A stretch of 64,000 bases of DNA from Myxococcales bacterium (GCA_047601445.1 JASGJH010000001.1:7168001-7232000), one strand, 5' to 3'. Positions 34,987 to 51,902 are shown, counted from the stretch's first letter. Program-made: numbers and translations. The notes: generated by a model from the letters alone, not told the origin.

Positions 34987-36237
34987 TCACTTCTTGAGCG
35001 ATGTGATCCAGTCCTTCACTTGCTTGAGTCCCGTCTCGTCCGCTACTTCGGTCCCGATCGGTGGCATCTGCAGCGTGCCCTCGCCACGCTGGCTCGCGCG
35101 GATCACCATCTCACTCTTGTCCGGATAGCCGGGCTCGATGATGTGCAGGTCGGGCAGGACCGAGTTCGGTTGGAGCACCGTGGTGCTGTAGCCCAGCGTG
35201 TGTTCCAGGGTGTCGAGCTTGTCGGTGCGCTCCCAGAAGATGGGCCCACCCGTGCGCGGGCCCCGCTTGAGGATCTGCTCGTAGGCCGTGGTGCCCGGGC
35301 GGTGGCAATGGCCGCAGTTGGCGTGCAAGTAGCCGAGGGCGTTCTCGGCCAGGGTGCCGCCGGGGATCTTGAAATTGGCCGCGGGCGGCTTGCTGAGGCG
35401 CCCCTCGCGCGCGAGGGACATCAGGTTCCTGCCCGAAAGGTCGTGCGAGAGCTGCAGCGCGCTCACGCCGAGCAACACACCTTGACTGTTGTGGCAGCGC
35501 ACGCACTGGGTTTGGTCCGGGATATCGTGGGCGGTGCCCAGCGCGTTGGCTTGTCCCGCGGGCACGGCGTCGGCGTCGCGTTGGTCCGCGCGCCAGCGGT
35601 AGGCCACCATGACCCAGCGATCTTCGGCCGCCTTGTGCAGCATGCGAGTCTCCACGCGCACGCCATCGACGCGGAACTCCTTCCAGGCCTTGGTGCCCAC
35701 CGGGAAATTCCAGGCATCCATGTCGCTGGTGTCGATCTGCTTGCCGACCGGCAAACGCAGCCAACGGCGCTTGATCGCTCCGTCGGACCACAGCACGAAG
35801 TGCGGTTGGAAGCTCATCACGTCGCCGCGCACGACGTCGTATTGGATGCTTTGGTATAGCCCTGTCTGCGACAGCAGCTCCGGATAGCCGCCATCACTCA
35901 ACGGGCCTTCGACGTCCGCGTCCGAGCCGGCATCAGTCTGGGCATCCGCGTGCGCACCCGCGTCGCTTGGCGCCGCGTCCATTTCGTGCCCGGCGTCTCC
36001 TTCATGCCCTGCGTCGAGGATGAGCGCGGGCGAGGCGTCCTGACCGGCGTCCTCTGGCTCCTCCACCGGCATCTCGTCGACCCCGCGATCGAAGGAGCCG
36101 TCGAACCCTGCGTCCTCGAGCTCGGGCGCTCCGCGCCGCCCGGTGGCGTGCGTGTCCAGCGTGCACCCCGCGAGTGCCAGGCAAGCCGACAGGAGAAGCG
36201 ACGAGGCGCGCCGTCGCATGCGGTTGGGCTCAGTCAT
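34987..36237 (-). CDS. Diheme c-type cytochrome lipoprotein (SO2930-like)
   Basis: Lipobox LAGC, LSQTGLY, LWSDGA.KRRW, FPVGT..WKEF, VETR, two heme motifs (CVRCH, CGHCH) and QMPPIG. Confidence 0.85.
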
Positions 36238-37132
36238 TTTTCGCCCCCGCTCGGATCCAGCTGCGGAACACTTCGATCTGCGTGTCGCTCAAGGCCGGGT
36301 AGTTGTCTGGCATGCGCACGCCGCAGTCGGCGGTTCCTTCGAGCTTGTGGATGATCAAGCTCTTCGTCGGATCGCCGGGTTTGACGCGCACCTGGCCGGT
36401 TCCGCCGCAGTCGATGCCCGCCGCGGAGACGTTGACCAGGTTCTGATAGGCCTTGTCCTGCGAAGACATGTCGAGGTGTCCGAGCTGGAAGCCGATGTGG
36501 TCCGCCACGTGGCAGAACGCGCAGTGCTTCCAAATAATGGCGTAGACCTTGGTGAACGTGGTGGTGGGCGGCTTGGTGGTGCCCGCGTCGGTGGTGCCCG
36601 CATCGGGCTTGGTGCCCGCGTCGGTGGTGCCCGCATCGGGCTTGGTGCCCGCGTCGGTGGTGCCTGCATCGGGCTTGGTGCCCGCGTCGGTGGTGCCCGC
36701 ATCGGGCTTGGTGGTGCCTGCGTCGGTCGAGCCTGCATCAGGCTTGGTGGTGCCTGCGTCAGGCTTGGTGGTGCCCGCGTCGGTGGTGCCCGCATCCTTG
36801 GGCACGCTGGCGTCAGGCCGAGCTGTGCCTGCGTCACTCGTGCCTGCATCCGAGCCCACGGCCCGTGCCGGCGGCATGCTTGTCTGGGCATCGCTCGGTA
36901 CCGCAGCATCGCGCGGTCCCGCGTCGAGGCGCGGGCCGGGCAGAGCCATCGTGCCTGCATCCTCGGACTCCGGGTCGCTGTCCGAGTCGTGAGACCCCGT
37001 GTCCGGGGTGTCGGCGTCCAGCCACTCATGCTGGGTCAGTTGTTCGTGGTCCGCTTCCTCCGGTGCGCAGGCGGCGCCGAGAAGACAGCTCGCACCAAAA
37101 AGTCTCAGTAGCGTAAGGGAGTAATTGCGCAT
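36230..37132 (-). CDS. Monoheme c-type cytochrome lipoprotein on a long DAGT-repeat tether
   Basis: Lipobox GAAC, tandem PDAGTTDAGTK, CAFCH, VKPGDP.KSLI..KL, RMP and WI..GA. Confidence 0.8.
   Translation of the reverse strand: MRNYSLTLLRLFGASCLLGAACAPEEADHEQLTQHEWLDADTPDTGSHDSDSDPESEDAGTMALPGPRLDAGPRDAAVPSDAQTSMPPARAVGSDAGTSDAGTARPDASVPKDAGTTDAGTTKPDAGTTKPDAGSTDAGTTKPDAGTTDAGTKPDAGTTDAGTKPDAGTTDAGTKPDAGTTDAGTTKPPTTTFTKVYAIIWKHCAFCHVADHIGFQLGHLDMSSQDKAYQNLVNVSAAGIDCGGTGQVRVKPGDPTKSLIIHKLEGTADCGVRMPDNYPALSDTQIEVFRSWIRAGAKND
36571..36797. repeat. Coding tandem repeat with a 33-bp unit (PDAGTTDAGTK); about 4 near-perfect copies plus degenerate copies
   Basis: GGTGCCCGCGTCGGTGGTGCCCGCATCGGGCTT is repeated head-to-tail. 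Confidence 0.9.
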
Positions 37133-37444: not shown

Positions 37445-38598
<1,154 letters not shown>

Positions 38599-38602
<4 letters not shown>

Positions 38603-39189
38603 GTTGTACTCCCAGCGACAGTCGAGACGATGAATGCGGTCAGCTCGCTGAGCGAGCCGGTAAACTGCGGTTGCGCGCGCGCGATGGCGGCCTCCGGCAT
38701 CAAGGGCATCTGCGCCGACTCGGGGCTCTGCACGGCGACCAGGCCGCCGTTCTCGCGCACGCACTGGGCGCCGCGCGCGCCATCCTCGTTGGCGCCCGTG
38801 AGCACCACGGCCAACAGGCTCGGACCGAATACCTGCGCGGCCGACTCGAACAACACATCGATGGAAGGACGCGAGTAGTGCTCCGGCGCGTCGATCGAGA
38901 GGGCCAGGGTGGTCTCGGACTCCACCAGCATGTGATAGTCCGGTGGTGCGAACCAGACGCTGCCCGCGCCGAACGACGCCTGATCGCTCGCTTCACGCAC
39001 GGAGAGGGGGCACAGAGACGAGAAAATCTCGCACAGCAAGCTCGGTTTGCGCGGCGGCAGATGAACCACCACGAACACAGGGGCTGCAAAGTTGGCCGGC
39101 AGAGCTGGCAAGACCACGCGCAGGGCTTCGATGGCCCCTGCAGAGGCGCCAACCACCACGGCTCGGATGGGGCTCGGGTGTTTCAGCAT
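38599..39189 (-). CDS. cheB: Stand-alone CheB methylesterase catalytic domain, no REC
   Basis: GASAGA (Ser), VVHL (His), APPDYH, RPSIDVLFESAA and LTGANEDGA (Asp). Confidence 0.92.
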
Positions 39190-39991
39190 CGCTGGTACCA
39201 GCCCGCCTTCTCGCTGCGCTCCCGGAACGCACCCGCGTGCGTCGAGAAGCGCAGCGACTCCTTGGAGCCGAGCCCAAGGAAGCCCTTGCGACACAGCGAC
39301 TCCCGAAAGAGGCCCACGGTGCGGTCCTGCAGCTGACGGTCGAAGTAGATGAGCACGTTGCGGCAGGACACCAGCTGCACCTCGGCGAACACGTTGTCCG
39401 TGGCCAGGCTGTGATCCGAGAACACCGCGCGCTGCACCAGACTGCGGTCGAACACGGCCGACCCGTAGGCAGCGGTGTAGTACTCCGAGAGGGAGCAGCG
39501 TGCGCCCGACTGCCGGTGGTTCTCGGTGAAGGTAGGGATCCGATCGATGCCGTAGACACCGGCCTCGGCTTTGCGCAGGGCATCCGGGTTGATGTCGGTG
39601 GCGTAGATCAGGCTGCGCTCGAGCAGGCCTTCCTCGCGCAGCACGATCGCGAGCGAGTAGACCTCTTCGCCGGAGCTACAGCCCGCCACCCAGACGCGAA
39701 TCGAAGGGTAGGTGTGGAGAATCGGCACGATATGCTCGCGCAGGGCGCGATAGTAGGCCGGGTCCCGGAACAAATCGCTCACCGGCACGGTCATCAATTG
39801 CAAGAGCCGCGTGAACTGCTCGGGCTGGAAGGCCAGGAGCTCGTCCAGCTCGGGCAAGCTCTCGCAGCGCAGGTCGCCCAGCGCGCGCGAGAGTCGGCGG
39901 CGCAGCGAGGCGCGGGCGTAGGAGCGGAAGTCGTAGTGGAAGCGTCGGTAGATCGACTCCAGAAAGGTATCCAGCTGTCGATCGTCGAAGT

Positions 39992-39995
<4 letters not shown>
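39183..39995 (-). CDS. cheR: CheR protein-glutamate methyltransferase
   Basis: YDFR.YA..SL.RR, FRDP, RVWVAGCSSGEEVYS, YATDI, CRNVLIYF and LGSKES. Confidence 0.95.
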
Positions 39996-43492
<3,497 letters not shown>

Positions 43493-43679: not shown

Positions 43680-44252
43680 TTACTCGGATGCGGACGCGCG
43701 GGCCCGGCTGCCGAACGCTTGCACCGCGGCGGCCGAAATCGTGCGTGACTCCGGCGGCGCTACCGTGCTGCCACTCGGAACGCTCTTCATGATCACGGTG
43801 TTGGCGCCGATTTTCACGTGATCTCCCACGCGTACCTTGCCGAGCACGCGCGCGCCGACGTAGATATCGACGTGGTCGCCGACCGTGGGGAACATGCCCT
43901 CGCTGTTGGCGTTCGTGCCGAGCGTGACCTCGTGGAAGATCAGGCAGTCTTCACCGATCACGCAGGAGCCGATGATCACGCTCCACGGGTGGATCAGGCA
44001 CAGGCCCGGGCCGATCTGGGCGTCCGGGCTGATGCGCAAGTTGAAGCCGACGCGCCAGACGGTGTCCATGGCCCGCTGCGGGACATGCACCAGCAGCCGG
44101 AGAGGGCGAGGGACCGCGCGCACCCAAACTCCGAGTCGATGCGTGGCGCCGGCCCAGAAGCCCAGGTTTCTGAGCGGCCCGCCGAAGCCGGCGTAGCGGC
44201 GCGCGTCCCGGCGCAGGTCGTGCACGAGTTTCTTGCTGGCCTGGTACATCAT
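43680..44252 (-). CDS. CysE/LbH-family hexapeptide-repeat acyltransferase
   Basis: ISPDAQIGPGLCLIHP...IGEDCLIFHEVTLG...PTVGDHVDIYVGARVLG.VRVGDHVKIGANTVI...VP. Confidence 0.88.
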   Translation of the reverse strand: MMYQASKKLVHDLRRDARRYAGFGGPLRNLGFWAGATHRLGVWVRAVPRPLRLLVHVPQRAMDTVWRVGFNLRISPDAQIGPGLCLIHPWSVIIGSCVIGEDCLIFHEVTLGTNANSEGMFPTVGDHVDIYVGARVLGKVRVGDHVKIGANTVIMKSVPSGSTVAPPESRTISAAAVQAFGSRARASASE

Positions 44253-44340
44253 GGGGGGATCTCCTGGGAAGAGGCCGCGAGACGCGCGGTCGCGCGTGAG
44301 CCCGGGCTCGCGCTCTCGTCGCGCACCGCCACAGCCGAAG

Positions 44341-45516
44341 TCATGCGTCGGCCGCGAGGACCAGCGCAGAGGTCGATCCCGTCCTCGAGCTCGCCGTGGT
44401 GAGCAGTGCTCCGCGCTCGATGCGCGCCGAGCGCTGCGTGTAGCGTGGCCCCGGCACGCGAGGGGTGGAGAGGCCCGCGATGGCGGGGGCCACGCCGCTG
44501 CGCAGCGCGGAGAGCCCGACCAGCACTTGCAACAGGCCGGCGGCGTCCATGCTCTCCCCGAGGTTGGCCTTGGGTGCGATCAGGGCAGGTGGCTTGGGCG
44601 ACGACGCGTAGAACATGGCGCACAGGGCGTGCGCGTGTGCCTCGTCGTCGCTCGGGAGACCGTTGGCTCCCGAGCTGATGAGCGCCACGTCGGCGGGGGA
44701 GAGCTCGGCGCGAGTCAACGCCCGCTGAGCGCTGTCGGCCAGGCTCATGCCGAGCGTCTCGGGCGACGGATGAAAGCCCGCCGCGTGCCCGAGCACCACG
44801 CCGTGAACATTGGCAGCGCGCTCGCGGGCGGCGGTCAAGGGTTCGACCACTAACGCGCAGGCGGCTTCGGCCAGCACCATGCCGCGGCTCTCGGCGTCGA
44901 ACACACGCGCTCCGTGGTGATCGCTGAGATTGGCGTCGCAGCCCAGACTGTGGCCCGCGAGCGGCGCGAAGGCCCCAACCACCAGGCAGGCTCGCAAGCG
45001 ACCGCTCTCCACCATGCGCGCTGCGAAGCCGAGCGCCTCGAGCCCGCCCGCAGCTCCCACGCTCAAGGTCACCGAGCAGCCGCGCATCCGAAACGCCAGG
45101 GCGCTCGCCGAGCCCGGGGCGCTGCCGATGGCGAGCGGCATCAACGCGGGGTTGGTGCGCTCCATGCCCTTGGTGACCAGTCCGAAGTCGTACTCCACCA
45201 GCGTATCCACATGACCATGGGTGGAGGCCATCACGAGCCCGAACTGCTCGCTCGGCACCTGATCGCTCCCGAGCCTGGCGTCCGAAAGCGCCAGCGTGGC
45301 GGCGCAGATGCCGAGCTGGGTGGTGCGGTTGTAGGCCCGCATGCCGCGCACGTTGGCGTAGCGCGACGCCTCGAAGTTCGGCACCATGAGGCTGCCCGCG
45401 CCCTGCTGCGTGAGCGCGCTCTGGCCCTCTCGCAAGCTCTCCATCAGCCGCGCCAGATCGTCGCCCAGCGGCGTGATCAAGCCCGCACCCGTGATCGCTG
45501 CGCGCGTGGACCTCAT
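44341..45516 (-). CDS. Catalytically inactive ketosynthase (chain-length-factor-like)
   Basis: KS fold (AITGAGLITPLG, AEAACALVVE) with the catalytic Cys position reading SVGAAGG and the His positions reading SSGANG and KANLGES. ATGA overlap with the KS gene. Confidence 0.85.
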   Translation of the reverse strand: MRSTRAAITGAGLITPLGDDLARLMESLREGQSALTQQGAGSLMVPNFEASRYANVRGMRAYNRTTQLGICAATLALSDARLGSDQVPSEQFGLVMASTHGHVDTLVEYDFGLVTKGMERTNPALMPLAIGSAPGSASALAFRMRGCSVTLSVGAAGGLEALGFAARMVESGRLRACLVVGAFAPLAGHSLGCDANLSDHHGARVFDAESRGMVLAEAACALVVEPLTAARERAANVHGVVLGHAAGFHPSPETLGMSLADSAQRALTRAELSPADVALISSGANGLPSDDEAHAHALCAMFYASSPKPPALIAPKANLGESMDAAGLLQVLVGLSALRSGVAPAIAGLSTPRVPGPRYTQRSARIERGALLTTASSRTGSTSALVLAADA

Positions 45517-46736
45517 GGCATCCTCCTGATCAGCGTACTCACGTTGAAGCCCCCGAAACCCGCCGCCATGTTCAGGCACGTGGTGAGCGCGGCCGGGCGC
45601 CCCTTGAGCGGCACGAAATCGAGGCCGAAGGCCGGGTCCGGGTCGGTCAGGCTCGCCGTGGGCAACACCGCCTGTCGCTCCAGCATCAGCACGCAAGCGA
45701 TGGCCTCGATGGCGCTCGCCGCGCCGTTGGTGTGCCCCAGCATCGACTTGATGGAGGACACCGGCACCTGCGTGCAGCGCGCCCCGAGTACGGCCTTGAG
45801 CGCCAGCACCTCGCCCGCGTCGTTGTACTGCGTGCCCGTGCCGTGCGCGCTCACATAGTCGATCTCGTCGGCCGACGCGCCGCTGGTGGCCAGTGCCTGC
45901 AGAGCAGCCCGTGCGAAGCCCTCGCCGGTGGGCTCGGGAGCCGTGAGATGGTACGCGTCGTTGCTGATGCCGAAGCCGAGTAGCTCGGCCCTGCAGCGCG
46001 CCCCCCGGCGCTCGGCGTGCTCGAAGCTCTCGAGCACCAGCACCGCCGCTCCCTCACCGAACGACACCCCGTCGCGCTCGCGGTGGAAGGGCTTGAGGAA
46101 GCTCTTGGAGAGCGCCCCCATCCGACGAAAGCCGCAGTAGGTGAGCCGCGTCAGCGTATCGACGCCACCCACCAGTACGAGCTCGGCGCCGCCAGACGCG
46201 ACCAGGTCGTAGCCCCATGCGATGGCGGCGTTGCCAGAGCTGCAGGCGGTGGCGTTCATCAGCACGGGCCCGGTTGCGCCCACGTCGCGCGCCACGGCCG
46301 CGGCGATCCGGTGATTGTCGGAGCATTCGAAGAGCTCTCCCCAGCTTGTCGCCTGCGCGTCCTGCGCACGCTGCTCATTGAACGCTCCGACTTGGCGTTC
46401 CTCCCCCAAGGTCGTGCCGAGCACCACACCTGCTCCGGTCAGCGCCGGGCTGGCCGCGGTAAGACCTGCGTCGCGCAGCGCACGCCGGCCTGCGCACACC
46501 GCAAGCCCGACGGCGCGGCGCGCCGGTGTTCCCCACTCCGCCCACGGATCTTCCGTGAGGTCCGCCTCGGCCCCCACGAGGCCCGGCAGCTCCGCGATGG
46601 CGAAGTGCTCGAGCGGCTTGATGAACGAGGTCCCCGTGTAGAGCGCGTCCCAAAAGCGCCCCAGATCTCCGCCCGCCGGGCTCACCAAACCGAGTCCAGT
46701 GATCGCAACACGTCGTTCGCGTCGGACGGATGTCAT
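45513..46736 (-). CDS. Type II beta-ketoacyl-ACP synthase (active KS)
   Basis: RVAITGLG, TACSSG (Cys), GEGAA, DAYHLTAP, SAHGTGT (His) and KSMLGHT (His). Confidence 0.95.
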   Translation of the reverse strand: MTSVRRERRVAITGLGLVSPAGGDLGRFWDALYTGTSFIKPLEHFAIAELPGLVGAEADLTEDPWAEWGTPARRAVGLAVCAGRRALRDAGLTAASPALTGAGVVLGTTLGEERQVGAFNEQRAQDAQATSWGELFECSDNHRIAAAVARDVGATGPVLMNATACSSGNAAIAWGYDLVASGGAELVLVGGVDTLTRLTYCGFRRMGALSKSFLKPFHRERDGVSFGEGAAVLVLESFEHAERRGARCRAELLGFGISNDAYHLTAPEPTGEGFARAALQALATSGASADEIDYVSAHGTGTQYNDAGEVLALKAVLGARCTQVPVSSIKSMLGHTNGAASAIEAIACVLMLERQAVLPTASLTDPDPAFGLDFVPLKGRPAALTTCLNMAAGFGGFNVSTLIRRMP

Positions 46737-46750
46737 GGGTTAGTTTTCCT

Positions 46751-46975
46751 TCACAGTCTCAGGGACTCGACCACGCGCACCAGGTCATCGAAGGTGCCGA
46801 CCTCGGCATAACGCTCCTCGGGAAACTTCACCGAGAAGGTCTGCTCGATCTCGAACATCAGCTCCATCACGCGCACCGAGTCCACCTTGAGCTCGTCCCG
46901 CAAGTGCGCTGACCTCGCGAAGTCGTCCTCAGTCTCCGCGATCTTTGCCACGATGGTTCGCAGTTCCTTTTCCAT
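46751..46975 (-). CDS. Acyl carrier protein
   Basis: 74-aa acidic protein with L.VDS.RVMEL..EIE..F (phosphopantetheinylation Ser) and a purine-rich RBS. Confidence 0.9.
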   Translation of the reverse strand: MEKELRTIVAKIAETEDDFARSAHLRDELKVDSVRVMELMFEIEQTFSVKFPEERYAEVGTFDDLVRVVESLRL

Positions 46976-47018
46976 ACCCCTGTTCTCCCCCTTTTACGAA
47001 TCCAATGCCGGTCAGCCT

Positions 47019-47279
47019 TTACGTACCCGCGCCCGAAAGCTTTCCCTTCACCAGGTTGGCCACCGCGCTCACGGTGCGGAACGAGTCGGTGCTCACGTCC
47101 GCCGGGTCGAGCTGCACCTCGAATTTCTCGTCCAGAAAGGCCACCAGGGCCAACGTCGAGAACGAGTCCAAGATGCCGCTTGCCTGGAGATCCGTCTGCT
47201 CCGTGAATCCCCGCGCGTCGCCGCTCAGCCAGGTTGTCACGATGTAGTCGATGATCTCGTCCATTACGCGCGTTTCCAC
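47019..47279 (-). CDS. Peptidyl/pyrrolyl carrier protein (PltL/RedO-like)
   Basis: TDL.ASGILDSFSTLALVAFLDEKF.V.L.PADV...SFRTV. AAGGAG RBS precedes the GTG start. Confidence 0.88.
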   Translation of the reverse strand: METRVMDEIIDYIVTTWLSGDARGFTEQTDLQASGILDSFSTLALVAFLDEKFEVQLDPADVSTDSFRTVSAVANLVKGKLSGAGT

Positions 47280-47292
47280 CTAGTTCTTCTCC

Positions 47293-48877
47293 TTATTTCG
47301 TCCCGCGCACCGCTGCGCGCGCATCCGTCGTCGCCGCCGCTCGAGCTTGCTGGCTCTCGAGCACGTCGTTCTTCACCTTCACGCGGTCGATCTTGCCGCT
47401 CGTGGTGCGAGGCATGGAGGGCACGGTGCGCACCTCCGAGGGGATCATGTAGCGAGGCAACTTGGACGCGCAGTGTTGCTTGATTTGCAGGATGGAGAGC
47501 TGCGGATCGCTCGCCACCAGCACGGTCACGAGCTCCTGACCCACCACCAGCGCGATCGCTTCCTGAATGCCGGGGTGCAAGAGTAGCGCGGACTCCACCT
47601 CGCCGAGCTCGATGCGATAGCCGTGGACCTTCACCATGTGGTCGCGGCGGCCGTGGTACATCACCGCGCCGTCGGGACGCTGCGAGACCATGTCTCCCGT
47701 GGCGTAGGGGCGCTTGGCGAGCAAGGGCGAGCCCGCGTTCCAATAGCCCACCATCACGGTCGGACCGTCGATGAACAGCTCGCCCACTTCGCCCGGCTTC
47801 ACGGGGCGCCCGTTCTCGTCGAGGATGGACATCACGTCGCCGCAGGACGGGTGTCCGATCGGAATCGCGTTGTCTTCCTCGGCGGGGATCTCGGGCAGCG
47901 CGTAGGCCAGGCAGACGTTGGTCTCGGTGGGCCCGAACAGATTCCAGAACTTGGCCTGCGGCAGTGCGCGCATGGCGCGTCGCAGGTGCTTCATGGGAAA
48001 CACTTCGCCCGCGAAGTACACGGCGCGCAGGGAGGGCGCGCCCTGTTCCTCGAGGTCAGCCTGGTCGAGCATCAGGATCAGCGCGGACGGCACCGAGTAC
48101 CAGACGCTGATGTTGCGCTGTCGAATACGCTCGAGCATGCGCGGACCGCTGACCACCGTGGTCTCGTCCACGATCACGATGGTGGCGCCTACCCAGAGTG
48201 CGGTCCACACGTCGAAGATCGAGAGGTCGAAGTGGAAAGGAGCCACGCTGGCCACGCGGTCGGAGTGGTTGAGCTCGATTCTGATTGCCGGCCCATTCGA
48301 TGAAGGCGAACGCATTGCGGTGGGAGAGCATCACGCCCTTGGGCACGCCGGTGGAGCCCGAGGTGTAGAGGATGTATGCGAGCTCGTCCGCGGCCTCGCT
48401 CGGCGGGTCCATGCGCTCGCCGCTCTCGTCTTGCACCTCGGCCCAGTGATGGATCACGGCGTCGTGCTGCACGGCGGGCAGCGGGCCGTCGGCGCTCAGC
48501 ACGAAGTGACGCACGGGCGACTGCACGCCGGATGCGAGCCAGCTCGAGAGCAGCACCGGCGAGATCACCACGTGACGAATCCCGCAGTCCCTGGCGATCA
48601 AAGCGATGCGCGCCGGCGGCGAGCCCGGATCGAGCGGCACGTAGACCGCTCCCGCACGCAGCGCGCCCAGCATGGCCGCCACGGTGCGACCGGAGCGTGG
48701 CATGTGCACACCCACGCGGTCGCCCTTCATCACGCCCATGCGCTGAAAGAGCCGGGCAAACCGGTTGGCGAGCTGGTCGAGCTCTCGGTAGGTGATCTTC
48801 TCGATCACACCCTCCACGGCGACGTGGTTGGGGTCGTAGTCTGCCCACGCACTCACGAACTGATCTAACCGCATCAT
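47293..48877 (-). pseudogene. Stand-alone L-proline adenylation enzyme (PltF/RedM-like), split by a 1-nt insertion (real or sequencing error)
   Basis: The 5' frame has TYRELD, YVPLDP and YILYTSGSTGVPKG. The 3' frame has FHFDLS, WYSVPS, FAGE, NLFGPTETNVC, YATGD, GRRD..VK..GYRIELGE and SGKIDR. The frames join if one A is removed at 48279-48280. Confidence 0.88.
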
Positions 48878-50022
48878 GGCAATCCCATCGCTTTCGCAAT
48901 AATCGCGCGCTGAATCTCCGACGTACCCGAGAAGATGCGCGACGGAATCGCGTCGCGCAGAAGAGCGTCCACGCCGGTCTCCGGCAAGATCCCGGCACCA
49001 CCGAAAATCTGCACCGCGTCGAGGCCAGACTGAACGGCGGCCTCCGCGATGTAGAGCTTGCTCATAGCTACGGCTTCCTCGCAGCGTTTACCCCGGCGAT
49101 GCAAATCGCCCGCATGCAGCAGGAGGAGCCGCGAGGCCTCGAGCCGCAGGCGCATGTCGACCAGCTTGTTCGAGACGCCCTGGAAGCTCCCCAAAGCCTG
49201 CCCGAACTGTCGACGGGTGCGCGCGTGCTCCACACACTCGTCGAGGCTTCTCGCCATGGCGCCGACGTAATATGCAAATAGGCAGCCACGCTCCCAGATC
49301 ATCGATTCACGGAACAGCATCGCCCCCGCGCCCTCGGGGCCCACCCGCATCTGTTCTGGGACGACACACTCTTCGAGGTACACGGTGCCCCACGGAGAGG
49401 TCCTGAGACCGCTCTTGGTCTCGCCGGGCGCGACCCTCAGACCCTTGGTGTCACGCGGCACCAAGAACGCGCTGATGCCGAGGAATCCGCGCTCCGGACT
49501 GGTCGACGCATAGACCAGGAATAGGTCGGCCACCGGCGCATTGGTGATAAAGAACTTGGTGCCCTCGAGTACATACTCACCCCCCACCCGGCGAGCGCTC
49601 GCCTTCAGCGAATACACGTCGGAGCCGGCGTTCGGCTCGGTGGTGGCGTTCGAGCAGATCAGGCGACCCGCCGCGATGTCTGTAAGGTAGCGTTCCTGGT
49701 GGTACTTGGAGCGTGAGCGCCAGATCGGCACGGCTGAGGCAAAAGTGTGCGCGCAGAGCGAGAACACCAGGCCTCCATCCTCCGAACCACGGCCCAGCGC
49801 CTCGACCAACAGCATGGTGTCGACCGCGTCGAAGCCGCCGCCGCCCCATTGCTCCGGGATGGGCAAACCGGTCAGACCGAACTCGGCCGCTTCGTTCCAC
49901 AGCTTGCGGTCGAAGGTGCCTGCTCGATCGCGCTCGCGCGCGCCAGGGGAAAGTCGATTGCGCGCAAACTCGAGGGTTGCCTCGATGCGCTCGCGTTGGC
50001 TCGCCGTGAGCTCCATGCTCAT
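48874..50022 (-). CDS. Acyl-CoA dehydrogenase family protein, probable L-prolyl-carrier-protein dehydrogenase (PltE/RedW-like)
   Basis: PEQWGG.G, D.GL.FS..AH....VPI, TEP.AGSD, GTK.FITNAP.AD, WER, R.QFG, QIFGG.G and IFSGTSEIQR. ATGA-coupled to the adenylation gene. Start 50022 or 50016. Confidence 0.85.
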   Translation of the reverse strand: MSMELTASQRERIEATLEFARNRLSPGARERDRAGTFDRKLWNEAAEFGLTGLPIPEQWGGGGFDAVDTMLLVEALGRGSEDGGLVFSLCAHTFASAVPIWRSRSKYHQERYLTDIAAGRLICSNATTEPNAGSDVYSLKASARRVGGEYVLEGTKFFITNAPVADLFLVYASTSPERGFLGISAFLVPRDTKGLRVAPGETKSGLRTSPWGTVYLEECVVPEQMRVGPEGAGAMLFRESMIWERGCLFAYYVGAMARSLDECVEHARTRRQFGQALGSFQGVSNKLVDMRLRLEASRLLLLHAGDLHRRGKRCEEAVAMSKLYIAEAAVQSGLDAVQIFGGAGILPETGVDALLRDAIPSRIFSGTSEIQRAIIAKAMGLP

Positions 50023-50141: not shown

Positions 50142-51902
50142 ATGACGATCTTCAGCATCTACCTGCGCGTACTCAATCAGCTGGGCCCCGAGAAGCGCCT
50201 CGGAATTTGGCTCGCCGTCGCAAACCTCGCGCTGGCGACCGCGCAGTTCGCGGAGCCCGTCTTGTTCGGTCGCATCATCGACTCGCTGACGCGTCTTTCG
50301 CGCTCGGACGGACCGTTCGAAATTGCGCGGCTCGCTCCACTTTTGCTGGTCTGGATCGCTTTTGGGTTCTTCAGCATCGGCGCCGGGGTCCTGGTTGCGC
50401 TGCATGCCGACCGGCTTGCGCACCGCCGGCGCGTCTCGGTGATGGCGGACTACTTCGAGCACGCGCTCTCCTTACCCCTGTCTTTCCACCTCACTACGCA
50501 CTCCGGTCGTCTGCTCAAGGCCATGCTGGGCGGGGCCGACTCCATGAGCTGGCTCTGGCTCGGGTTCTTTCGCGAACAGTGCGCTACCGCAGTCGCCCTG
50601 CTGGTGCTCTTGCCCCTTACGGTCTTCCTCAACCCATGGCTAGGCGGATTGCTGGTGGTGCTGGTGCTGTTCTTCTGCGCGCTGACCATGAAAGTGGCGC
50701 GTCGCACTCAGACCCTTCAGGCCCAGGTCACGCAGCACCATACCAAACTCGCCGAGCACACCAGCGACGCCCTCGCGAACGTTCCCGTAATCCAGAGCTT
50801 CACGCGGGTGGAAGCCGAGTTGCGCGCGCTTCAGGCCATCGGGCGCCGCTTGCTCGAGGCGCAAATTCCCGTGCTCTCGTGGTGGGCGGTGGCGGCCGTC
50901 GCCACGCGCGCTGCGGCCACCTTGACCGTGACCGGCATTCTCGTGCTTGGGGCCTGGCTGATCACGCAGCACAAGGCCAGCGTCGGCGAGCTCGTCACCT
51001 TCATGAGCCTCGCCACCATGTTGATCGGCCGGCTCGACGCCACGGTGGGCTTCGTGGGCACGCTGTTCATCGAGGCCCCCAAGATGCGCGAGCTCTTCAC
51101 ACTGCTCGATACTACCCCCAGCGTGCGCGACCGGCCCGACGCCCGCGACGTGCAGCGACTCTCCGGCGCCATCGAGTTCGACGACATCCATTTCTCCTAC
51201 GATCCCAAGCGTAAGATCCTCGATGGCCTTACTTTTCAGGTGAACCCAGGTGAAACCGTCGCCTTGGTGGGAGCCTCGGGCTCTGGCAAGACCACCACGC
51301 TCTCCCTGCTGTATCGCGCCTTCGATCCCGAGCGCGGACGCATCCTGGCGGATGGCCTCGAACTCGGCGCCTACACGCTGCACTCGCTGCGCCGCAATAT
51401 CGCGGTGGTGTTCCAGGAGCCCATGTTGTTCGCGCGCTCTATCCGAGAGAATCTGCTGGTGGGCAAGCCCGACGCCAGCGACGCCGAGATCCGTCGTGCG
51501 CTCGAGCGGGCGCAGGCGTGGGAGCTGGTGGAGCAGCAGCCCGAGGGACTCGACACGGTGCTCGGTGAGCGTGGTCGCTCTCTCTCCGGTGGTGAGCGCC
51601 AGCGCCTGTCCATCGCGCGTGCGCTGCTCAAGAATCCGCCCATTCTGATTCTCGACGAGGCCACCGCTGCGCTCGACGCCGACACCGAGCGCAAAGTGAA
51701 GCTGGCCCTCGACGAGGTCATGCGCGAGCGCACTACATTCGTGATCGCGCATCGCCTGTCCACGGTGCGGGACGCCAGCCGGATCCTGGTGTTCGAGCAG
51801 GGCCGCATCGTGGAGAGCGGGACCTTCGGCGCGCTGGCGGAACGGGGAGGGCGCTTTTCGGAGCTCGTGCGTGCCCAGGTGCTCGACGTACCCAAGAGCT
51901 AA
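50142..51902 (+). CDS. ABC exporter (fused TMD-NBD) resembling cyclic beta-1,2-glucan exporters NdvA/ChvA
   Basis: N-terminus Y.RVL..LG.E.RLG..LA.ANL.LA.AQFAEPVLFGRIID and ADRLAHRRR recall NdvA/ChvA. Walker A GASGSGKT, LSGGERQR and ILDEAT. Confidence 0.85.
   Translation: MTIFSIYLRVLNQLGPEKRLGIWLAVANLALATAQFAEPVLFGRIIDSLTRLSRSDGPFEIARLAPLLLVWIAFGFFSIGAGVLVALHADRLAHRRRVSVMADYFEHALSLPLSFHLTTHSGRLLKAMLGGADSMSWLWLGFFREQCATAVALLVLLPLTVFLNPWLGGLLVVLVLFFCALTMKVARRTQTLQAQVTQHHTKLAEHTSDALANVPVIQSFTRVEAELRALQAIGRRLLEAQIPVLSWWAVAAVATRAAATLTVTGILVLGAWLITQHKASVGELVTFMSLATMLIGRLDATVGFVGTLFIEAPKMRELFTLLDTTPSVRDRPDARDVQRLSGAIEFDDIHFSYDPKRKILDGLTFQVNPGETVALVGASGSGKTTTLSLLYRAFDPERGRILADGLELGAYTLHSLRRNIAVVFQEPMLFARSIRENLLVGKPDASDAEIRRALERAQAWELVEQQPEGLDTVLGERGRSLSGGERQRLSIARALLKNPPILILDEATAALDADTERKVKLALDEVMRERTTFVIAHRLSTVRDASRILVFEQGRIVESGTFGALAERGGRFSELVRAQVLDVPKS

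Follow-up and report, generated by a model that had tools for sequence, protein, structure and literature searches.

What can be built, and for which acceptor, when enzymes that turn proline into a pyrrolyl starter are encoded together with a dissociated type II polyketide synthase (PKS) set is the question raised by an operon at positions 43680-50022 of a 64,000-nucleotide stretch of DNA (hereafter the window) from a Myxococcales bacterium (GCA_047601445.1, JASGJH010000001.1:7168001-7232000). The source genome (G000) is a single 9.5-Mb contig whose nearest named relatives are metagenome-assembled genomes (MAGs) of Myxococcales and Polyangiales. The seven genes encode, in order, a dehydrogenase of the acyl-CoA dehydrogenase type (ACAD), a stand-alone adenylation enzyme, a peptidyl carrier protein (PCP), an acyl carrier protein (ACP), an active ketosynthase (KS), an inactive KS resembling a chain-length factor (CLF) and a left-handed beta-helix (LbH) acyltransferase. 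We found that this operon is real, conserved and under selection, and apparently undescribed; each of its parts has a known counterpart. Considering gene content, synteny, motifs, phylogeny and selection, we tentatively propose, at somewhat less than even confidence, that it makes a short pyrrole-capped acyl-ACP donor which swappable acceptor enzymes would take, most likely to a sugar or glycan.

The starter can be read from three of the genes. The ACAD passes the NCBIfam PigA equivalog model (NF053553; 556.1 bits against a cut-off of 500), stays under the cut-off of the RedW model (418.6 against 650) and shares 57.5% identity with its counterpart in a pig-type cluster of Methylocystis. The AMP-binding domain of Pfam was recognised in both halves of the adenylase, whose frame is broken in this assembly (see below), and the top PDB match of an intact orthologue is an L-proline--[L-prolyl-carrier protein] ligase (6O6E, E 1.9e-114, which we take to be PltF), 7THQ being matched as well. 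The adenylation code is DLFY[F/Y/L]ALVCK in all 33 copies (24 with F, 7 with Y, as in the window, and 2 with L). The published consensus of stand-alone proline adenylases is L(L/F)YLALVC, with a Cys at the variable position in the proline-specific CcbC (PMC3874040), and the window code, LFYYALVC, agrees with this consensus at 7 of the 8 variable positions, position 299 being the odd one. The phosphopantetheine Ser motif of the PCP, which is 28-32% identical to PigG-type carriers, is kept in 45/45 aligned copies, and the DS of the ACP motif is invariant in 38/38. Because the code is near the proline consensus and the closest solved relative is a prolyl-carrier ligase, pyrrolyl-S-PCP is likely formed by this triad. 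The initial annotation, made from the sequence of the window, had proposed that a proline-to-pyrrolyl triad feeds a dissociated KS/inactive-KS/ACP set, and this proposal is supported by the PigA score, the DLFYYALVCK code and the conserved synteny.

Indeed, the order ACAD-adenylase-PCP-ACP-KS-CLF recurs wherever contigs extend far enough, locus L002 having a ketoreductase (KR) and an LbH gene inserted before the KS. The family was collected as at least 46 metagenome loci retrieved with a KS profile, 4 genome loci and several genomes examined individually; duplicates (L001/L029, L002/L026, L043/L076 and L041/L042) were counted once in the KR, glycosyltransferase (GT) and LbH tallies given below. 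Since dozens of loci show this order, it is not due to chance, and the expected conservation of the seven genes in other genomes holds for this core order. The distribution is nevertheless patchy: the family occurs in 4 of 10 genomes of the genus, 6 of 61 relatives (matches of at least 55%), 2 of 15 genomes in another family and at least 2 of 401 genomes in a sample of the phylum, the latter figure being a floor as 4 candidates were scored per genome. Among the best 120 KS homologues, the few with NCBI names are all MAGs of Polyangiaceae or Anaeromyxobacteraceae; the family has thus far been seen in uncultured bacteria only, the named matches being myxobacteria, and on plasmids no KS above 40.3% identity was found. 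The source genome carries a second operon with the same six-gene order (G000:C1:4130715-4136405, L020:9904-16481; 42-70% identity), which is preceded by a GNAT-like gene and is without KR or LbH. B12-binding radical SAM genes adjoin the core in L045, L047, L060 and L071, which suggests a tailored sub-family.

The two KS subunits set this family apart from the systems to which it might be compared. The active KS reaches 311.6 bits with the FabF model, short of the cut-off of 493.75. In the second KS, Ala stands in place of the catalytic Cys and both His are missing; in the motif variants listed for 37 aligned copies of this subunit, the catalytic position holds Gly, Ala, Glu or Asp and never Cys or Gln. 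The top PDB matches are chain B of 9S5H for the KS (E 2.5e-85) and chain C of the same entry for its inactive partner (E 1.4e-30), a likeness from which, together with translational coupling of the two genes, we infer that both subunits form a heterodimer. The entries 9S5H/9S5I probably represent the anammox amxFabF2/amxFabFmut heterodimer, the residue numbers having been matched by hand to a preprint whose available text carries no PDB codes. This anammox system is a FabF-like pair of one active and one dead subunit with its own ACP, and prefers C6-C8 probes (bioRxiv 10.64898/2026.05.19.726425); it would provide the closest solved sequences for both window subunits but, as described there, involves no amino-acid starter.

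In a quick maximum-likelihood tree of 47 KSs (28 from the family and 19 references, IgaA being outside the tree), the 28 family KSs fall into a single clade, with an SH-aLRT of 100 and a stem of 0.84, that is separate from PigJ, aromatic KS-alpha, ApeO/ApeR and FabF and within which the window, L030 and L001 make up a fast-evolving subclade (stem 0.52). An approximately unbiased (AU) test on a 22-row subset rejected a joint clade of the family with PigJ (p-AU 0.022), but neither one with aromatic KSs (p 0.052, two references only) nor one with ApeO (p 0.068, long branch). The KS phylogeny, proposed as a check in the initial annotation, separates the family from ApeO/ApeR, FabF and aromatic KSs in the quick tree, whereas the AU test leaves the aromatic and ApeO groupings standing. 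Two residues, Glu113 and Asn337, are present in 28/28 family KSs and in 0/19 reference KSs; they replace an Ile and a Met of amxFabF2, both positions being part of the wall of the acyl tunnel in the amxFabF2 structure. At position 110, equivalent to the back-gate residue I108 of FabF (PMC9006962), 27 of the 28 family KSs have Leu or Met, and all 28 have Ile, Thr, Leu or Val where FabF has Gly198. The family KS pocket would accordingly be short and polar, and would fit the NH of pyrrole. The predicted model of the KS is weak (pLDDT 61.8, 7 sequences) and a fold search with it returned FabF-type folds without ranking power. The KS clade appears to have reached the chemistry of PigJ independently.

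Extension of a pyrrolyl starter on an ACP by a KS is not new chemistry, because PigJ and PigH do so: the pyrrolyl group is taken over by the cysteine of the KS and joined to ACP-bound malonyl, which gives pyrrolyl-beta-ketoacyl-S-ACP (PMC6667630). The MBC branch of prodiginine biosynthesis (PigI/PigG/PigA; PigJ, corresponding to RedX and TamF; PigH) relies on the same starter triad as the window operon. However, PigJ is one protein of 735-870 aa that is 27-32% like the window KS, whereas KS, partner and ACP are separate in the window; the window KS reaches 80.8 with the NCBIfam PigJ model against a cut-off of 900, and most family loci add a KR. The operon may be likened to the PigI/G/A-PigJ-PigH entry into prodiginines, in which a FabF-type heterodimer would do the condensing and a reduction would take the place of the prodiginine serine condensation. 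No match to PigC, PigD or PigM was found in the source genome (tblastn, E 1e-8), and its PigH matches cover the PLP domain only. A prodigiosin pathway was therefore rejected, there being no fused PigJ, a rejected joint clade with PigJ, no PigC/PigD/PigM and no PigH serine-transferase fusion. Prodiginine-type clusters were also observed on plasmids of Alphaproteobacteria (L077, Methylocystis iwaonis; L120, Thioclava). The view that the architecture is undescribed overlooked the chemical precedent of PigJ/PigH, but stands in so far as we found no description of a proline-derived pyrrole starter combined with a dissociated KS/CLF/ACP/KR set in the open literature, MIBiG and subscription journals lying outside this search. 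A term count in the text of a 2025 review of type II PKSs gave 0 occurrences of 'pyrrol' or 'proline' (PMC12664062).

Pyoluteorin biosynthesis has, like the window, a stand-alone proline adenylase, a carrier and a dehydrogenase (PltF/PltL/PltE), beside which the window operon is without a halogenase. The DKxanthene and aminocoumarin pathways also use such triads, and in these three types of pathway the pyrrolyl group is taken up by a modular type I PKS or transferred to an aminocoumarin by an acyltransferase. Among type II PKSs, the myxobacterial aurachin system AuaB-E is primed by an adenylated nitrogen-containing aromatic acid. In aromatic type II CLFs, Gln replaces the catalytic Cys; this Gln is absent from the motif variants listed for the window family, and neither a cyclase nor an aromatase was found among the recurrent neighbours or the part of the neighbours scanned with Pfam. 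Highly reducing type II PKSs (ApeO/ApeC, IgaA/IgaB) have in common with the family a KS/CLF pair, a discrete ACP and a KR (in trans in the window genome), but no dehydratase (DH) pair like theirs was seen in it and, in the quick tree, their KSs (ApeO/ApeR) are separate from its clade. In cispentacin/coronafacic acid biosynthesis (AmcH-AmcB-AmcF/AmcG), an adenylating enzyme primes a carrier, a KS heterodimer performs a single C2 extension and host fatty acid synthase enzymes are borrowed (PMC10698177); this system differs by its 2-oxoglutarate starter and by a small cyclisation factor as partner, and the window KS stays below the AmcF cut-off (251.8 against 325). Judged by its sequence, the operon is to be placed with the pyrrolyl starter triads and outside the prodiginine, the aromatic type II and, for want of a DH, the highly reducing type II systems.

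In the pathway that we propose, the adenylase would very probably load L-proline on the PCP and the dehydrogenase would oxidise it to pyrrole-2-carbonyl-S-PCP, as family membership leads one to expect. The pyrrolyl group would then, with good probability, pass to Cys165 of the KS and be condensed with malonyl-ACP by the KS/inactive-KS pair into 3-oxo-3-(pyrrol-2-yl)propanoyl-S-ACP, FabD and the phosphopantetheinyl transferase (PPTase) being supplied in trans by the host. One or very few extensions would follow, a single extension by a primed type II KS pair having a precedent in cispentacin (PMC10698177), and it is rather probable that the ketone would be reduced by a distant family KR, whose gene neighbours encode a second LbH and a CurA-like ene-reductase. 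Finally, and here we are hesitant, the LbH might pass the ACP-bound unit on to an acceptor bearing a hydroxyl or an amine; elsewhere in the family, a GT2-LbH fusion, a nonribosomal peptide synthetase (NRPS) condensation domain or an alpha/beta hydrolase takes this last slot.

The window LbH scores below both curated cut-offs for its relatives (EpsC, 94.7 against 150; CysE, 93.2 against 210.65) and belongs to a 13-row clade (support 97) of which 11 rows adjoin the core or the split-off KR; within this tree, the stem of the subclade of the window, L030 and L001 measures 0.43. Its His88 is invariant in 98/98 aligned rows. The landmarks of CysE are presumably the serine-binding Asp before the catalytic His and an Arg before the PKI motif; in all 98 LbH rows, the position of this Asp holds Ile, Val or Met, and the Arg loop is not kept. 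Members of the window LbH clade follow the core in 9 of 29 loci and a second LbH pair does so in 5 of 29, with a GT2-LbH fusion, placed directly after the KR, in L032 and L044; other post-core genes encode an NRPS condensation-adenylation protein (L060), an exosortase-type hydrolase fusion (L048, L051) or a PPTase (6 loci). The LbH thus closes the cluster at the window, as first described, but is an accessory rather than an invariant member of the core.

A link to polysaccharides is suggested by the surroundings. In 14 of 29 loci, a CysE-like LbH gene is found no more than 3.5 kb downstream, where 0.1 such loci would be expected (profile from the window LbH clade, background from the source genome), and 8 of 29 have a GT2 or GT4 gene at up to 5 kb, compared with an expectation of 1.2 and a maximum of 7 in 5000 draws (profiles and background from the source genome); L033 additionally has Wzc/Wza and L045 a WecG gene. 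Sister LbH rows sit in polysaccharide-type loci without KS, together with Wzy, Wzz and a sugar transferase in L089 and with AsnB, NadE and a carrier in L091, those of L090 and L091 directly following an AMP-ligase. On a plasmid of Microvirga sp. VF16 (L121:7423-10119), a proline-code adenylase (DLFYLALVCK) and a PigA-like dehydrogenase stand among GT2, GT4, sugar-transferase and Wzc genes, with no KS-sized open reading frame (ORF) among the ORFs listed for this locus. Considering the variable last gene, the LbH and GT counts and the sister loci in polysaccharide regions, a swappable hand-over of the ACP-bound unit is therefore the best reading. A more specific version, in which a KS/CLF clade of independent, FabF-derived origin and with a polar pocket for pyrrole supplies CysE-like LbHs (some fused to GT2) that put a pyrrole-capped acyl group on cell-surface polysaccharide, is doubtful.

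Some related gene sets were noted in passing. The AMP-ligases of L089-L091 carry non-proline codes, and AsnB- and NadE-like genes occur in L089 and L091. A Pseudohalocynthiibacter plasmid (L119:7564-11741) has a carrier-dehydrogenase-methyltransferase-adenylase set, with a code which is not that of proline (DIFFIGSMCK), beside YjbH/YjbF and polysaccharide export genes. Microvirga sp. VF16 is a cultured strain and would be tractable for a search for pyrrolyl-glycans.

Several observations weigh against a pyrrolyl donor destined for a glycan. Code position 299 departs from the published proline consensus in 31 of the 33 adenylases, the window adenylase is frameshifted in the present assembly, and the pocket residues were taken from alignments and not from a liganded model. 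No glycosyltransferase lies within 5 kb of the window locus or of the five nearest loci with flanks (L001, L002, L003, L004 and L020); 21 of the 29 loci are without GT2/GT4 nearby and, from its sequence start, one of the 8 matches is probably a glycogen synthase; 15 of the 29 have no CysE-like LbH downstream. Both enrichments are moreover overstated, as the loci share ancestry and a single genome served as background. Lastly, the predicted LbH structure (pLDDT 94.9) is closest in fold to the serine acetyltransferases, which depend on acetyl-CoA, rather than to the ACP-dependent LpxA/LpxD. A predicted complex of the LbH trimer with the ACP scored 0.06 against a mark of 0.32, in a trial whose controls were not folded, and was not used as evidence.

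The main rival reading gives the LbH another role, that of an acetyl-CoA O-acetyltransferase acting on the hydroxyl which the KR makes on the ACP-bound chain. Acetate would then leave, which replaces the dehydratase, the CurA-like enzyme would reduce the alkene and a small pyrrolyl-alkenoate or -alkanoate would be released; O-acetylserine, activated by CysE, offers a parallel for such a departure of acetate. The CysE-type fold with its conserved catalytic His, the position of the LbH clade directly after the KR (L002, L003, L004, L022, L043, L063 and L092), the loci without DH and the CurA/PTGR-like reductase adjacent in 17 of 58 loci (one a duplicate) are all consistent with it. We nevertheless consider it unlikely, as the window subclade retains the LbH without a KR in cis, half of the family is without such an LbH and no release enzyme is evident.

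The missing KR has itself to be explained. Of the 32 loci whose CLF is complete, 29 contain a FabG-like KR and three do not, namely L030, L001 and L020, the second copy in the source genome (L004, in which the CLF is fragmented, does have a KR but was not counted for that reason); the window operon is likewise without one. As the KR recurs in 29 of 32 loci, its absence is a derived state and not a family rule. The initial annotation had listed no halogenase, thioesterase, KR, DH, cyclase or PPTase in the cluster, which is correct for 43680-50022 but does not extend to the family, where the usual seventh gene is a KR; lack of KR is limited to the derived three-member subclade (window, L030, L001), and an intact family KR is encoded elsewhere in the genome. 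It forms a split-off pair with an LbH, next to a divergent CurA/PTGR-like reductase (G000:C1:6027720-6030477, L022:9720-12477), 1.2 Mb from the window operon. Genome G007 shares this KR-LbH-reductase arrangement (L092, with the KR interrupted by an N gap) and has one window-type core only (1 ACAD match, 1 clade KS), a combination which suggests that the KR is used in trans, G007 being 94% complete. Alternatively, the KR-less subclade would be a duplicate with a new function and an unreduced end product, either the pyrrolyl-beta-ketoacyl-ACP itself or a triketide, which would cyclise to a pyrrolyl-pyrone or lose CO2 to give 2-acetylpyrrole. Although the long stems of the subclade in the KS and LbH trees agree with such a change, and the distant KR could work together with the second six-gene copy, this is distinctly unlikely given that G007, with its lone window-type core, still keeps the KR-LbH-reductase locus and that the window KS has the pocket residues of the family.

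Iterative extension to a long pyrrole-capped polyene pigment comparable to aryl polyenes or ishigamide, a product type envisaged at first, is not supported. No dehydratase, cyclase or halogenase recurs among the 597 called proteins of 58 loci, and none was found in 134 Pfam-scanned proteins (38 + 76 + 20), nearly all of them neighbours, the batch of 76 representing 76 of the 111 neighbours within 5 kb of 21 loci. Dehydration would have to occur in trans or spontaneously beside the pyrrole. Pyrrolyl carbinols and their vinylogues readily lose water, and the host encodes a stand-alone gene of the FabA/FabZ family; moreover, a KS/CLF pair with a KR is the skeleton of the highly reducing type II systems, and the ApeO grouping was left unrejected by the AU test. 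However, no locus examined has a dedicated DH, in contrast to the aryl polyene cluster of E. coli, many loci come with an ene-reductase-like gene, and the tree sets the family apart from ApeO/ApeR. Since no dehydratase recurs and the polar, bulky residues of the KS pocket point to short substrates, a long polyene is disfavoured, and we regard it as very unlikely.

Two further KS loci of the source genome may be mentioned. At G000:C1:3207866-3214012 (L118:7867-14013), another KS/inactive-KS pair is followed by a BioF/serine-palmitoyltransferase-like gene, a fatty acyl-AMP ligase and two ACPs being encoded divergently from it; KSs like those of L118 occur in most relatives of the order and form the sister group of the pyrrolyl clade, and the locus is possibly an amino-lipid or sphingolipid pathway. 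At G000:C1:214000-219200, aryl-polyene-like genes (ApeR-like KS, FabG2-like, ApeP-like dehydratase) stand beside a flavin halogenase match.

The layout of the window operon is given in Table 1. The domain of each of the seven genes was confirmed by Pfam and NCBIfam, and the co-orientation, order and two ATGA overlaps first reported were all recovered, the overlaps being at the ACAD/adenylase and KS/inactive-KS junctions. From ACAD to LbH, the intergenic spacings are -4 (ATGA), 28, 43, 14, -4 (ATGA) and 88 bases; a promoter and terminator scan gave no signal above shuffled sequence.

Table 1. Genes of the pyrrolyl starter/type II PKS operon, in order of transcription (window positions).
Product	Coordinates	Strand	Remarks
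PigA/PltE/RedW-type prolyl-carrier dehydrogenase (ACAD)	48874..50016	-	380 aa from ATG 50016; alternative upstream ATG 50022
Stand-alone adenylation enzyme, proline-type code DLFYYALVCK	47293..48877	-	Reading frame broken by 1 extra base at 48279-48280
Peptidyl carrier protein (PCP), motif GILDSFS	47019..47264	-	PP-binding (Pfam); likely prolyl/pyrrolyl carrier
Acyl carrier protein (ACP), motif LKVDSVR	46751..46975	-	PP-binding and ACP models; likely malonyl/product carrier
Active FabF-like ketosynthase (KS)	45513..46736	-	Cys165, His298, His335; family-specific Glu113, Asn337
Catalytically dead KS paralogue, chain-length-factor-like (CLF)	44341..45516	-	KS domains
CysE/EpsC-like left-handed beta-helix (LbH) acyltransferase	43680..44252	-	Hexapep (Pfam)

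The extra base in the adenylase is one A doubled, as judged against L030 and L001, which are both intact. In a comparison with G007 (151 proteins tried, 26 without a close match), 3 of 124 other genes show frame changes, or 4 of 125 with the adenylase, which amounts to about 1 per 46 kb of coding DNA. Both adenylase halves are under purifying selection (dN/dS against L030 of 0.14 and 0.16, 0.157 after the break), and the private amino-acid changes downstream of the break number 11 in the window adenylase and 14 in L030. As close relatives are intact and both halves are under purifying selection, the frameshift is probably an assembly error, or else a very recent mutation; decay does not fit. 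That the extra base is real and the operon a fresh pseudogene, either silent or with the copy at 4.13 Mb filling in for it, would accord with the frameshifted assembly, the paralogous six genes and the KR lost from this copy, but is most improbable in view of a single doubled A in a genome where other genes are likewise frame-changed, of the selection and few private changes past the break, and of the remaining operon genes, all intact.

The neighbouring genes of the window were considered separately. Placed divergently at 50142-51902 (+), an NdvA/ChvA glucan-exporter-type ABC transporter (PRK13657, 833 above a cut-off of 733) is common in the genus; it was rejected as a part of the system, being present in 6 of 9 other genomes of the genus, 3 of them without the cluster, and adjoining the operon only in the window and L001, and because a search of the source genome found no cyclic-glucan synthase domain (GH94 PF06165, glycoamylase PF10091). 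An exosortase domain was likewise not found in that genome. Directly downstream of the operon, at 37445-43492 (-), genes for a hybrid histidine kinase, CheR-like and CheB-like proteins and a response-regulator kinase form an ordinary signalling set, syntenic in L001, and a secreted-looking protein with tandem TTDAGTKPDAG-type repeats is encoded at 36230-37132 (-).

With six or seven small genes, the system could be rebuilt in vitro from intact orthologues, and the two invariant polar residues of the KS pocket allow one to test directly what makes a type II ketosynthase choose a heteroaromatic starter. If the acceptor is a glycan, the family would represent a new type of surface modification and a new type of donor for CysE-like acyltransferases. 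It would then be a line from type II NRPS to type II PKS that decorates glycans instead of making a secreted antibiotic, so far confined to uncultured bacteria of soil and sediment.

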